From: Candidatus Krumholzibacteriia bacterium
Lineage (GTDB): Bacteria > Krumholzibacteriota > Krumholzibacteriia > Krumholzibacteriales > Krumholzibacteriaceae
NCBI GenBank assembly: GCA_963836185.1
Contig: CAWIIQ010000001.1
Span: forward strand, 1,728,001-1,792,000
Direction of reading: 5' to 3'
DNA length: 64,000 bases
Shown here piece after piece: positions 1-12,102 of this stretch (within the stretch, counting starts at the first letter, position 1; every line of letters begins with the position of its first letter). A program made the translations under genes and the position numbers. The notes beneath the pieces were generated by a model. It searched no databases. It was not told the DNA's origin and was given only the letters and a program-made list of their open reading frames with translations.

Positions 1-68
1 TATTGGAGATCCGGGCTCAAAGTGTTGGCAAAAAACGATCTTCGCCTGCACGAACACAGCAGGGAATT
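1..68 (-). ncRNA. ssrS: 6S RNA, 5' part (runs off the window start)
   Basis: Minus strand begins AAAUUCCCUGCUGUGUUCGUG, resembling the 6S 5' end (E. coli AUUUCUCUGAGAUGUUCGC), at the conserved position just downstream of zapA. Confidence 0.6.
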
Positions 69-5598: not shown

Positions 5599-7527
5599 CT
5601 AGTCTTTTTTCTCTATCTCGTCAACCAGTTCCTCGACGAATTCGTCGACCATCTTCGCTCCGAGGCGTCCCTTCTTCTTCGACCTGATATCGAGGGTTCC
5701 CTCGTCCATCTCTTTCTTGCCGGCTACAGCCATATAAGAGACCTTCTTGATCTCGGCATCCCTTATACAGTAACCGAGCTTCTCGTCACGCAGATCGGCT
5801 TCGGCCCTGATCCCCGCTGCCTTCAGCTTATTCAGGCATTCGACGGCATAGTCGTTCTGATCTGGCGATACAGGGATGATGACGACCTGGACCGGAGCGA
5901 GCCAGAGAGGAAACGCCCCGGCGTAATGCTCTGTCAGGGTGCCGATGAACCTCTCGATAGAGCCCAGAAGGGCCCTGTGTATCATGTATACGTATTCTTT
6001 CTTCCCATCGCTGGTCACGTACCGGACGTCGAACCGGCGAGGAAGGTTAAAATCAAACTGGATCGTAGTCGCCTGCCAGCCCCTGCCGATCGCATCGATG
6101 AGCTTCAAGTCGATCTTCGGGCCGTAGAAAACGGCCTCGCCGGGCATCTTCTCGAAGGGGATGTCCCTCTTCTCTATGGCCTTCAGCAGAGCTTCCTCGG
6201 CCATCTGCCATTCATTCTCCGATCCGGCGTACTTCTCCATGTTCTCAGGGTCGTGCGCGCTGAGCTCTACCTTGTAGTCATGGAATCCGAATGTGGTCAG
6301 TATCTCGTGAGCGAGATCGAAGCACTTGTCGACTTCTTCGTCGAGCTGTTCGGGAGTGCAGAATATATGCGCGTCGTCCTGGGTGAACCCACGCACCCTG
6401 AGCAGTCCGTGCAGGGTGCCGGAACGCTCGTTGCGATATACGGTCCCAAGCTCGGCGTACCTGACAGGCAGGTCGCGGTAGCTGTGGATCTTGGTCTTGT
6501 ATACCAGGACATGATAAGGACAGTTCATCGGCTTGAGGACGAACTCGTTGTCCTCGTCGTCGCCTATGATATACATGTTCTCCCTGTAGAAGCTCAGATG
6601 GCCCGAGGTCTCCCAGAGTTTACTGTCAGCGATATGCGGGGTCATTATTACATCGTAGCCGTTGCGCCGGTGCAGGTCCTTCCAGTAGTTCTCGATAGTC
6701 TCGCGAAGAATATACCCCTTCGGATACCAGAATACGAGACCTCCTCCCGCTTCCTCCTTGATGTCGAAAAGCTCAAGCGCCGGACCGAGCTTTCTGTGGT
6801 CGCGTTTTTTGGCCTCTTCCCTTCGCTCGAGCTCTTCTTTAAGGTCCTCGGCGCTGAAAAACGAGGTTCCATAGATTCGCTGCAGCATCTCTCTCTTCTC
6901 ATCGCCGCGCCAGTATGCCCCGGCAAGAGAGGTCAGCTTGTGATACTTCAGAAACTTTACGTCCGGAACATGGGGCCCGGTACAGAGATCGGTAAATTCT
7001 CCGAGACTGTAGACCGAAAGTTCTTCCTCGGTATCCAGATCCCGGATCAGCTCCACCTTGAATGGCTGCTCCAGCTTCTCGAAGAGCGCGATCGCCTCAT
7101 CGCGGGGAAAGAGCTTCCTCTCGAATTTCAACCCGCCCTTCCTGAGAAGTTCGCCCATCTTTTCCTCTATCTTCTCGAGGTCTTCAGGCGCCAGCCTCCG
7201 GTCCATCAGTATGTCGTAATAGAATCCGTCCTTGATCGAAGGCCCGATAGCGAATTTGACGCCCGGGTATAGTTCCTGTATCGCCAGCGCCATCAGATGA
7301 GAGGAACTGTGCCTGAGCTCGTCAAGCGAGCCTTCCGAACCGGCCAGGACGACCTCGAAGTCGCCGCCCTCCTCGATTGTCTGCTGTAGGTCATAGGTCC
7401 TTGCGCCGATACGCGCGGCGATGGCCTTTTTCCTCACCGACTGAGGCAGCCCCGAAACGATCTCCATGATCGGGGAACCTTCGGCGATTTCCTTCTTCGA
7501 TCCATCCGGATAAGTGATCTCTAACAT
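5599..7527 (-). CDS. thrS: Threonine-tRNA ligase
   Basis: Motifs RHSSSHLMA, DLCTGPH, RDHRKLG, LKPMNCP and FYGPKID; likely start MLEITYPDG. Confidence 0.98.
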   Translation of the reverse strand: MLEITYPDGSKKEIAEGSPIMEIVSGLPQSVRKKAIAARIGARTYDLQQTIEEGGDFEVVLAGSEGSLDELRHSSSHLMALAIQELYPGVKFAIGPSIKDGFYYDILMDRRLAPEDLEKIEEKMGELLRKGGLKFERKLFPRDEAIALFEKLEQPFKVELIRDLDTEEELSVYSLGEFTDLCTGPHVPDVKFLKYHKLTSLAGAYWRGDEKREMLQRIYGTSFFSAEDLKEELERREEAKKRDHRKLGPALELFDIKEEAGGGLVFWYPKGYILRETIENYWKDLHRRNGYDVIMTPHIADSKLWETSGHLSFYRENMYIIGDDEDNEFVLKPMNCPYHVLVYKTKIHSYRDLPVRYAELGTVYRNERSGTLHGLLRVRGFTQDDAHIFCTPEQLDEEVDKCFDLAHEILTTFGFHDYKVELSAHDPENMEKYAGSENEWQMAEEALLKAIEKRDIPFEKMPGEAVFYGPKIDLKLIDAIGRGWQATTIQFDFNLPRRFDVRYVTSDGKKEYVYMIHRALLGSIERFIGTLTEHYAGAFPLWLAPVQVVIIPVSPDQNDYAVECLNKLKAAGIRAEADLRDEKLGYCIRDAEIKKVSYMAVAGKKEMDEGTLDIRSKKKGRLGAKMVDEFVEELVDEIEKKD

Positions 7528-7640
7528 GTTCAGATTATCCACCCTGAGGAAGTACCGTAAGTACAGAAAGCACCGGAGCGGCGGATACTCCCCGCCCACA
7601 CCCGGGCATTTCCATTATTTGCGCGAGGGCTGCAGTAAAG

Positions 7641-7783: not shown

Positions 7784-9715
<1,932 letters not shown>

Positions 9716-9763
9716 TCACTCCTTTAAAGGTATTTCATTTATTACTAACCACTTACAATACAC

Positions 9764-9779
9764 ATCAATATCCGTGCCA
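9764..9779 (-). promoter_or_regulatory. sigma54-like -24/-12 element upstream of dnaK
   Basis: TGGCACGGATATTGAT: GG-N10-GA, with GA instead of the canonical GC at -12. Confidence 0.5.
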
Positions 9780-9879: not shown

Positions 9880-9918
9880 ACCTGACATGAGCTGCCATGT
9901 TGTCAGCTCATGTCAGGT
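9880..9918. repeat. Perfect 15-bp inverted repeat rich in TGNCA
   Basis: ACCTGACATGAGCTG-N9-CAGCTCATGTCAGGT. Confidence 0.9.
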
Positions 9919-10219
9919 TATCGTCGGAATCGTCTTTAAAACTGCATGTTATGCTTCCGCTCTCCATCCTCAGAAGGAACTCGTAGCATATCTCGTAATT
10001 ACGCTTAGCAAGATCGCCGTAGTCATAATATACGCATTTCCCGCGTTTTGCGCAGCGGTTCCTCTCCATGCACATCGACAGGTGCTGGGCCAGCCAGGAT
10101 GTTAGATATTCTTCTTCGCCGACCTCCCACCTTTTCCGGCCACTCTCGAGATCCTGGTCGTGATGGTAGGGCAGAAGCTGTTTCCTTAGCTCCTTTATCA
10201 GTTTTTCAAGTTCTATCAT
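9908..10219 (-). CDS. Small Cys-rich hypothetical protein (103 aa)
   Basis: AGGAG upstream of the ATG; five Cys; fills an otherwise empty gap; no family recognised. Confidence 0.6.
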   Translation of the reverse strand: MIELEKLIKELRKQLLPYHHDQDLESGRKRWEVGEEEYLTSWLAQHLSMCMERNRCAKRGKCVYYDYGDLAKRNYEICYEFLLRMESGSITCSFKDDSDDNLT

Positions 10220-10235: not shown

Positions 10236-10264
10236 TTGACAGTATAGGTGTTTCTCCCTATATT
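10236..10264 (+). promoter_or_regulatory. sigma70 promoter for the putative sRNA
   Basis: TTGACA (10236-41)-17 nt-TATATT (10259-64). Confidence 0.75.
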
Positions 10265-10270
10265 TCATCC

Positions 10271-10406
10271 AGATGGGCAGGGTTCCCGTGATTTACCCTT
10301 TGCCCCTACGGTCTTACCCGGCCAAACCCCTTCGGGCAGATCACCCGCCCGGAACCAGGTCGGGCAATACCCCTGACACCAGGTTGCGGGAGCCCGCCTA
10401 TTTTTT
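10271..10406 (+). ncRNA. Putative novel small RNA with ACCC-loop hairpins
   Basis: Own promoter; ~23-bp terminal helix with several G-U pairs that form only on the + strand; three internal hairpins; U-tract end. Confidence 0.65.
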
Positions 10407-11768
10407 CGTCCATCTCTCCCTTATCATTTCTTCCAGCTTATCCCTGCTGTTTTGCTCAGGATGATCGAGCACGGCCTCGAGCAGCTCGTCGAGGATCTCT
10501 CCGACCCGCGGTCCCGGCTCTATCCCGGCGATCTCCATTACTTCGGCTCCGGCGATCGCCAGGTCGCTCCTCTTGAACGCCGACTCCTCGCCAATGACCT
10601 TTTCTATCCGGCTCCTCGAGTACTCCACCTCCTCACCGATCCTCCCGTCGCCTCTCGAAGCCCCGTCCGCTTTCCTTATCTCGAATAGATCGTCGATGTT
10701 TTCCAGTCCTACCCTGGCGACAAACCTTCGCACGGCTGAATCGGACCATTCCTCGGTTATCATGAACATATGATGCGATACGAGATGTTTCGCGCTGTTT
10801 ACAAACGAGACCGGGAACATCAGCCTGGTAAGTATTTCCTCGGCCAGCCTGGCGCTCTCCTCTTCATGCCTGTGGAACACGATCCGTCCGTTGAGCTCCG
10901 TCTTCATCTTCAGTTTGCCGAGGTCGTGCAGCAGCGCGCTCCACCGTATCAGGAGCTCCTGTTCGGCGATATCACAACTCTTTACGCTATGATGGAACAC
11001 ATCGTCGGGATGGAATTCATTCTGATCTACGCCCCATGTGTCATCGAGTTCCGGTATGACCAGGGGAAGTATCCCTGTCTCATGCATGAATATGAATCCT
11101 TCGCTGGGCCTTTCCGCGAGAAGCATCATCTTGTTGAGTTCGTCCCTGATACGCTCCATCGATACTGACTTGAGGAGATCCCTGTCCCTTTCCATCAGGG
11201 TCCTTGTCCCCGATTCGACCTCGAGACCGAACCTGGACATAAACTGGACACCCCTCATTATCCGCAGCGGATCCTCGACAAACGAGGTGTCCCTGTTGAC
11301 CCTCAGCACCCTTTTCTCGAGATCGTCCGCCCCGCCAAGCGGGTCGACAAGCTCGAAATTCCTCAGTGACAGGGCCATGGAGTTTACTGTAAAGTCCCTT
11401 CGCTCAAGATCAGAGGCCACAGGCATATCGGGATCGGATATTACCTCGAAATCCCTGTGACCGGGCCCCGTGGAGACCTCGGATCTTGGAAGCGCGATAT
11501 CGACGGTGATCCCCTCAGGGGTCTTGAACTTGATCACTCCGAAGGATCTTCCAACCAGATCGGCCCTTCCGAGCGCCTCCAGCATCGAAAGCAGGTCGTC
11601 CTCACCGATCCCCGACACTATATAGTCGAAATCGAGCGTGAGGTGCGCCCTGCCGAGAAGATGGTCACGTACTACGCCACCGACGAGAAAGAGGTCGCAC
11701 TTCCCCAACACCTCTTTCTCCCATGGGAAGAGATCCCTTTCGAGAGATATTACACGTTTACCACTCAT
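10398..11768 (-). CDS. cca: Class II tRNA nucleotidyltransferase (CCA-adding) with HD domain
   Basis: Motifs VGGVVRD, DFD, DLERRDFTVN, EDPLR and LLHDLGK. The ORF-track start at 11975 wrongly runs through a tRNA. Confidence 0.9.
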   Translation of the reverse strand: MSGKRVISLERDLFPWEKEVLGKCDLFLVGGVVRDHLLGRAHLTLDFDYIVSGIGEDDLLSMLEALGRADLVGRSFGVIKFKTPEGITVDIALPRSEVSTGPGHRDFEVISDPDMPVASDLERRDFTVNSMALSLRNFELVDPLGGADDLEKRVLRVNRDTSFVEDPLRIMRGVQFMSRFGLEVESGTRTLMERDRDLLKSVSMERIRDELNKMMLLAERPSEGFIFMHETGILPLVIPELDDTWGVDQNEFHPDDVFHHSVKSCDIAEQELLIRWSALLHDLGKLKMKTELNGRIVFHRHEEESARLAEEILTRLMFPVSFVNSAKHLVSHHMFMITEEWSDSAVRRFVARVGLENIDDLFEIRKADGASRGDGRIGEEVEYSRSRIEKVIGEESAFKRSDLAIAGAEVMEIAGIEPGPRVGEILDELLEAVLDHPEQNSRDKLEEMIRERWTKK

Positions 11769-11803
11769 GATCCCCTGCCGGCCGGCGGACGGTCGTGGAA
11801 AAA

Positions 11804-11888
11804 TGCCGGGGGCGGGACTTGAACCCGCACGAAGCCATGCTCCAGCGGATTTTAAGTCCGCTGCGTCTACCAGTTCCGCCACCCCGGC
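11804..11888 (-). tRNA. tRNA-Leu(TAA)
   Basis: GCCGGGG...CCCCGGC-A with a long variable arm; anticodon loop CT-TAA-AA; CCA not encoded. Confidence 0.96.
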
Positions 11889-12102
11889 AATCCCCTTGTC
11901 AACGATAAGATAGCACAATCGCCGAGTGCCTGGAAAAGGAATTGTAAGAGATGGAATAGTTCTTGAATAAATCATGTATCGACACAGGAAGGTCAGCAGA
12001 AAGGGCAGAAATTGCCAGGAATTCTACCGATATCGTAAAGAATGGCGCCGCGGGGCGCGGAAGTAATGATGCCGAAAGGCAGCCGATAAGCGGGGGAAAG
12101 AT

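Follow-up and report, generated by a model that had tools for sequence, protein, structure and literature searches.

A new family of small structured RNAs with C-rich internal-loop segments, encoded between dnaK and cca in Krumholzibacteriia

What does the gap between dnaK and cca encode in the Krumholzibacteriia? In the window, a 64,000-nt stretch of DNA from one genome of this class, the neighbouring genes all lie on the - strand, and a lone + strand gene would be divergent from a small ORF and convergent with cca. A preliminary description had placed a small RNA there, opposite to both neighbours. It proposed that this RNA displays ACCC in its hairpin loops and may be novel. To our knowledge, Krumholzibacteria are known from metagenomes only, and we know of nothing on their RNA regulators; a full-text search with the phylum name returned no work on non-coding RNA among the matches listed. 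The locus therefore raises the questions of whether such an RNA exists, what about it is conserved, and what it may do. The features of the RNA gene are as follows.

10236..10241, + strand: -35 box TTGACA of the RNA promoter, from a consensus scan
10259..10264, + strand: -10 box TATATT, after a 17-nt spacer from the -35 box
10243..10262, no strand: palindrome TATAGG-N8-CCTATA (also readable as ATAGGT-N7-ACCTAT), between and over the promoter boxes
10271..10406, + strand: predicted transcript of ~136 nt, from promoter spacing, the P1 helix and the U6 tail
10271..10291, + strand: 5' strand of the terminal helix P1 in the minimum-energy fold, with bulged A10279
10299..10306, + strand: motif a, UUUGCCCC, in junction J1/2, at least 70% conserved over 47 homologs
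10313..10322, + strand: motif b, CUUACCCGGC in this genome, its 3' part forming the 5' strand of P2a (10317-10323)
10317-10323 with 10358-10364, + strand: helix P2a, enclosing the optional hairpin P3, from fold and comparison
10331-10337 with 10347-10353, + strand: hairpin P3, inside P2a, optional
10369..10380, + strand: motif c, ACCCCUGACACC, in junction J2/1
10384..10403, + strand: 3' strand of P1 in the minimum-energy fold
10401..10406, + strand: U6 tail, after P1

The RNA gene has its own near-consensus sigma-70-type promoter. TTGACA-17-TATATT, to which the preliminary description had drawn attention, agrees with the consensus at 11 of 12 positions in a + strand scan, and from the spacing alone transcription is predicted to start near 10271. 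In nearly all of 47 homologs TTGACA stands at a constant distance upstream, usually preceded by an A/T-rich stretch and followed by a TAnnnT box. The palindrome inside the promoter is invariant in an alignment of eight species and is kept in family f1, not in f3, f6 and f9. Overlapping divergent promoters were considered for it because a - strand promoter candidate from the consensus scan, ATGAAA-16-TATACT at 10268-10241, overlaps the palindrome; the latter may thus be an operator, or may hold the two -10 boxes of such promoters.

The + strand of the RNA folds with -60.1 kcal/mol (z = -3.34 against dinucleotide shuffles), compared with z = -0.63 for the - strand. Its ends close in P1, where 10271-10278 and 10280-10291 pair with 10384-10403. 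The terminal helix and its bulged A10279 had been seen correctly in the preliminary description, but its dimensions had been overstated: P1 has 20 bp and 5 G-U pairs rather than about 23 bp and seven. Among homologs the helix measures 16-23 bp; gaps hardly interrupt it, and its sequence varies a great deal from clade to clade. In an alignment of 55 sequences, which was fitted to a model containing P1 and so favours it, 95.4% of the P1 cells are paired (76.3% when shuffled, at most 48% when the partner strand is slid), and double changes occur at 14 of the 16 modelled pairs, in 219 cells. In P1, 85 G-U pairs stand against 8 A-C combinations, an excess that assigns the RNA to the + strand, opposite to its neighbours, as had been claimed.

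P1 and the U6 tail, which is present as described, are together predicted to form an intrinsic terminator. It escaped a simple terminator scan owing to the size of the loop between the two strands; a U-rich tail follows P1 in most homologs, not in all. The locus has what is expected of an intrinsically terminated stand-alone sRNA gene: a promoter of its own, a stable helix that runs into a U tract, and no gene downstream in the same direction. Among public sequencing runs listed as containing part of the stretch there were two DNA runs and no RNA run. Its covariance-model match lies at G000:C1:1738268-1738408, and the RNA is ~115-143 nt long across homologs and ~136 nt here.

The interior of the fold departs from the earlier proposal. 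Three inner hairpins had been suggested, of which the middle one survives as P3; the other two, GGUC/GGCC and GUCGGG/CCUGAC, give way to the covarying helix P2a. In an alignment of 29 family sequences, also fitted to the model, double changes were found at 8/8 pairs of P2a and 7/7 pairs of P3; covariation is seen in these inner helices as in P1. P3 is deleted in three congeners (G002, G004 and G006). A further small hairpin predicted here, CCUG-ACAC-CAGG, is not conserved: it lacks covariation, and 15 of 28 sequences do not form its first pair. What emerges from fold and comparison is an RNA of two helices with a large, G-poor, asymmetric internal loop between them, whose two strands measure ~30 nt and 13 nt.

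This revision bears directly on the proposed role of ACCC, by which the RNA would act like CsrB/RsmZ as a sponge, titrating a protein with ACCC in its hairpin loops. All five copies are present (10295, 10316, 10326, 10343 and 10369), and this number exceeds chance: 5000 mononucleotide shuffles contained a mean of 1.0, with P(>=5) = 0.0012. However, a set of five is peculiar to this genome: the mean over the 47 homologs is 1.7, and one copy is the commonest number. The loops are not conserved either. Four congeners have ACUC in the loop of the first proposed hairpin, three lack the middle hairpin, and two of the three proposed hairpins clash with the covarying helix. Moreover, CsrA (PF02599) had no match in the genome, which is 92.5% complete. 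A sponge of this kind is therefore extremely improbable.

Instead of repeated ACCC, the conserved feature is the large G-poor internal loop itself with its three C-rich segments. Across the 47 homologs these follow a near-invariant order: UUUGCCCC, 5-9 nt, YUACUCGAC, a variable hairpin of 22-52 nt, and (A)CCCCUGACACC, which directly abuts the 3' strand of P1. For motif b, YUACUCGAC is the consensus and CUUACUCGAC the form in most relatives; it is paired in f1 and unpaired, 5' of the hairpin, in f6 and f9. Within motif c, CCCUGACACC is at least 90% conserved over the 47 model-found homologs. C exceeds G in 47/47 homologs (C 23-37%, G 15-28%). The mean predicted unpaired probability over 79 sequences, 37 of which had been picked by a pattern containing the motifs, is 0.72, 0.52 and 0.72 for motifs a, b and c and 0.42 for the whole RNA. 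By conservation, composition and predicted pairing, the RNA thus has the conserved, accessible, C-rich unpaired segments that are a trait of C-rich trans-pairing sRNAs. A string search of the literature with the motifs returned only unrelated primers and sequences.

The RNA also matched no known family, in agreement with the preliminary description. A scan of the window with Rfam 15 (4227 models, including 6S, SRP, tmRNA, 6C, RsaE, Yfr1, Y RNA and riboswitches) found only four tRNAs at the gathering score, and nothing overlapping the RNA between 10100 and 10550 at E up to 10. Ten diverse homolog loci gave, at E up to 1, only one tRNA at a locus edge. The genome has a canonical 6S RNA (RF00013, 75.3 bits) at G000:C1:1727883-1728068, that is, from window positions 1-68 onward upstream, on the - strand and ~10 kb from the candidate. 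Its SRP RNA lies at C1:2207642-2207906 (191.4 bits). The 136-nt candidate was rejected as 6S, given the canonical copy elsewhere and no match to the 6S model at E up to 10, and likewise as SRP RNA, which was found elsewhere in the genome and not at this locus.

To follow the RNA through the phylum, searches of increasing reach were used. BLAST initially matched the RNA stretch in 7 of 40 relatives. Of 43 family genomes, 31 gave one match each to covariance model R1, built from 8 sequences; R2, from 29 sequences, reached other orders; and with R3, from 55 sequences with P1 as sole structure, 57 of the 151 phylum genomes sampled had a match, always in exactly one copy. By family, R3 matched 26/32 genomes of f1, 1/1 of f2, 3/6 of f3, 17/17 of f6 and 9/9 of f9. 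It found no RNA in the 85 genomes of f4 (0/61), f5 (0/5), f7 (0/10) and f8 (0/9). With filters off, two of the three R3-negative f3 genomes were seen to carry the RNA at the expected place, and an exact three-motif pattern added 39 loci, 37 of them distinct, from metagenome contigs. The RNA thus spans several orders and five families of Krumholzibacteriia (f1, f2, f3, f6 and f9).

Three f1 genomes (G024, G044 and G012; loci L124, L125 and L126) have lost the RNA: their cca stop and small-ORF start are 92-94 nt apart and both genes are intact, which shows that the RNA gene is dispensable. The cca homologs of f4, f5, f7 and f8 are 31-35% identical and lie away from dnaK, and the locus as such is therefore absent from these families.

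Where the RNA occurs, its surroundings are stable: in all five families, each locus with enough flank shows dnaK, small ORF, RNA and cca in this order. In this genome the neighbours are the following.

5599-7599, - strand: thrS
position not given, - strand: tRNA-Val, between thrS and dnaK in the neighbour list
7784-9709, - strand: dnaK
9908..10219, - strand: orphan ORF of 103 aa, upstream of dnaK and divergent from the RNA
10398..10400, - strand: stop codon TAG of a cca-type nucleotidyltransferase gene with HD domain, convergent with the RNA, the stop lying inside the 3' strand of P1
11803-11889, - strand: tRNA-Leu(UAA)

At 36 of 44 loci, across orders, the 3' end of the RNA model covers the cca stop, and the median overlap is 10 nt. 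On the other side, 51 nt separate the predicted RNA start (~10271) from the start codon of the ORF (10219). A terminator scan detected no - strand terminator between cca, the small ORF and dnaK. Taken at its longest, the ORF of cca (10398-11975, - strand) covers tRNA-Leu(UAA), and the true cca start must therefore lie downstream of the tRNA; homology to relatives starts around ORF residue 26-70.

The small ORF belongs to one of two families that differ by clade. The 103-aa protein is 42-81% identical beside the RNA in 30/30 family loci, and its family occurs in 35 of 39 genomes of f1-f3 and in 0 of 111 elsewhere in the phylum sample. PYHH is invariant, as are two Trp and four Cys, and the protein is predicted to be all-helical (pLDDT 76); it has no Pfam, NCBIfam or PDB-fold match. 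A profile search with this protein gave 84 relatives, and every listed name was 'hypothetical protein'. In f6 and f9 a different orphan protein of ~105 aa stands between dnaK and the RNA (e.g., L069:1738-2055:+; loci L055, L057, L059-L069 and relatives), with the consensus MDDxxF..LN..WAxFLExCVKxGIxLSDxRW...DFRVGLQLLMGLL. It was found in 22 of 26 genomes there and in 0 of 124 elsewhere, and it too has no Pfam or NCBIfam family and no PDB fold match. Both families are predicted to be mainly helical with a similar order of elements, and both are acidic to neutral (pI mostly 4.1-6.9); profile-profile comparison showed no significant similarity between them (probability 1.6% and 5.7%), and an Atlas search with the two proteins gave no useful lead. 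As the families differ by clade and the 103-aa family persists where the RNA is lost, we do not claim that small protein and RNA form a functional pair.

A separate observation concerns dnaK. In many relatives (e.g., L035, L038, L044, L046, L047 and L052) TGGCAYGATAYTTGT stands ~40-60 nt before the dnaK start, and a weaker version is found in the window at about 9740-9770. It resembles the -24/-12 consensus of sigma-54 promoters; if it is such a promoter, this would be an unusual way to drive dnaK.

Taken together, promoter, fold, covariation and distribution make a well-supported case for a real, stand-alone, structured small RNA on the + strand. As to its function, we lean, tentatively and by analogy, towards a C-rich sRNA that pairs in trans without a chaperone, like 6C or RsaE; a C-rich RNA of the 6C type had been the second option of the preliminary description. 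The invariant C-rich, G-poor single-stranded segments would be offered to G-rich stretches of other RNAs, for example ribosome-binding sites. The loop segments would thus be the working surface, and P1 with the U tract would terminate transcription and protect both ends. The partner would be an RNA rather than a protein, and the action would be independent of Hfq, as with 6C and RsaE/RoxS. It is the composition, accessibility and conservation of the segments, together with the fact that no Hfq was found in the 92.5% complete genome, that incline us to trans pairing, although not to the point of an even chance. The searches for partners lent it no weight. Against 2513 crude start regions of this genome, the segments reached no better pairing energies than shuffled segments did: motif c had 244 sites at <= -14 kcal/mol compared with 222 +/- 102 for its shuffles, and motif a did worse than its own. 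Exact complements of the motifs occur in the genome at chance frequency, complementary 8-9-mers are not enriched near crude gene starts, and the dnaK start regions of 46 loci, judged by eye, held no obvious complement. Further points count against pairing. The 10-12 bases that are invariant across orders exceed the usual need of a seed, the gene is dispensable, as its loss from the three f1 genomes shows, and the C-rich segments lie in an internal loop or junction and not in hairpin loops, which weakens the analogy with 6C. Invariant bases, paired ends, a strong promoter and a fixed locus fit a protein-binding RNA equally well.

A serious if somewhat unlikely alternative is that the RNA belongs to a ribonucleoprotein specific to this lineage, or acts as decoy for a cellular machine as 6S does for RNA polymerase. 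Here the internal loop would be a protein platform, with the helices holding its shape and protecting the ends. A near-invariant loop (~30 nt and 13 nt) between freely varying helices would fit this well, as would a single copy at a fixed locus with paired ends and a perfect -35 box behind A/T-rich DNA, conservation across several orders, and the negative outcome of the mRNA start-region test. However, the analysis yielded no candidate for the protein partner. The small proteins encoded beside the RNA are acidic to neutral, lack a known fold and are not the same in all clades; a Ro/TROVE protein was not found in the genome. A role like that of 6S is further disfavoured by the lack of a 6S model match at E up to 10 and by the canonical 6S already present. 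In addition, loss from three genomes and absence from four families mean that the RNA is not essential. We consider it rather unlikely that a new ribonucleoprotein is built around this RNA, or that it serves as decoy for a central machine such as RNA polymerase or the ribosome, with the two-sided loop as docking site and a single origin in the ancestor of the five families; equally so that its standing is comparable to that of 6S or SRP RNA, to neither of which it would be related. Action in cis on the convergent cca has a small chance of being the explanation. By transcription collision, or by a duplex with the 3' end of cca, the RNA would control the amount of cca mRNA or keep cca transcription from running on into the small ORF and dnaK. 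The strong promoter fires towards cca, the stop codon lies inside the RNA 3' end at most loci across orders, the RNA starts 51 nt from the ORF in this genome, and cca, small ORF and dnaK share the - strand with no - strand terminator detected between them. An antisense role, however, needs neither a covarying + strand structure nor invariant unpaired motifs outside the overlap; the arrangement may be inherited gene order within one clade, and genomes without the RNA keep cca and the ORF intact, 92-94 nt apart.

A - strand element (a cca 3' UTR, or a leader of the small ORF or dnaK), or binding of a tRNA through motif c, is very improbable. For the former speaks that all neighbouring genes are on the - strand; against it stand the G-U excess in P1, the poor - strand fold, and a promoter and U tail that are both on the + strand. 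As to the latter, the motifs were compared with the tRNAs, tmRNA, 6S and SRP RNA: CCCCUGACAC of motif c is complementary over 11 bp to the variable loop and T stem of tRNA-Phe, and the duplex of -20.8 kcal/mol beats the best site in each of 20 random 6.8-kb genome pieces. We rejected this partner: in 4/4 species with a deviant motif c, the T stem of tRNA-Phe reads GGCGG, and no change in motif c is compensated there. For motif a, a 9-bp match to the anticodon region of tRNA-Pro(GGG) was seen, with an equally strong background for this motif. Within the rRNA operon, neither motif a nor motif c finds a better partner than in random pieces of the genome. A 10-bp pairing of motif b with the conserved 23S segment GUCGGGUAAG has -13.6 kcal/mol (rRNA stretch G000:C1:2302001-2308800) and is maintained through G-U in the common variants of the motif; the energy ranks second among 21 sequence windows, and the match was therefore treated as probably due to chance.

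Whichever reading holds, the locus adds a well-supported new RNA family. With its covariance model, a fold that is defined and three segments that are invariant, it is fit for RNA family libraries and can be annotated in ~40% of the sampled phylum genomes. It is restricted to one clade of an uncultured phylum. If pairing with mRNAs is true, it would be another independent invention of a C-rich seed, in a phylum without detectable Hfq; if protein binding is true, it would be a new ribonucleoprotein of housekeeping type, and of greater interest still if the invariant loop docks a central machine. The tight, conserved overlap with the end of cca offers a clean case for convergent transcription.

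Among known RNAs, CsrB/RsmZ resemble the candidate as stand-alone sRNAs with a repeated short motif, in this one genome only; the repeat of the candidate is not conserved and is not GGA, and CsrA was not found. With 6S it shares paired ends, two helices round a large internal loop, a single housekeeping-like copy and a strong promoter. It is shorter, at ~115-143 nt compared with ~185 nt, and its internal loop is conserved in sequence, unlike the loops of 6S, which are mostly without sequence conservation. Yfr1 of cyanobacteria has an almost invariant, unpaired C-rich stretch of ~11 nt between helices, phylum-wide, and the candidate too has a near-invariant unpaired C-rich stretch flanked by helices. 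Yfr1 consists of two simple hairpins and reaches about half the length of the candidate, which is unrelated to it in sequence and had no Rfam match. In 6C, the C runs sit in two hairpin loops, whereas in the candidate a long terminal helix encloses the large internal loop that holds the C-rich segments; the candidate comes from another phylum and matched 6C neither in sequence nor by model. 6C of Actinobacteria (PMC6486639) and, in Firmicutes, the Rsa RNAs with their UCCC motif (PMC2790875) and RoxS (PMC5419742) are all reported to pair C-rich unpaired segments with G-rich mRNA sites in a chaperone-free manner. The candidate is like 6C in being a small, structured, widely conserved stand-alone RNA gene with C-rich unpaired segments. 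From RsaE/RoxS it differs in its motifs (UUUGCCCC, YUACUCGAC and CCCUGACACC), in giving no model match, and in its ends, which pair in a 16-23-bp helix where RsaE/RoxS end in a 3' terminator hairpin. It shares with them conserved C-rich unpaired motifs, Hfq-independent action, which for the candidate is presumed, and conservation beyond the genus level. On present comparison, the family is new and its kind, the bacterial small regulatory RNA, already known.
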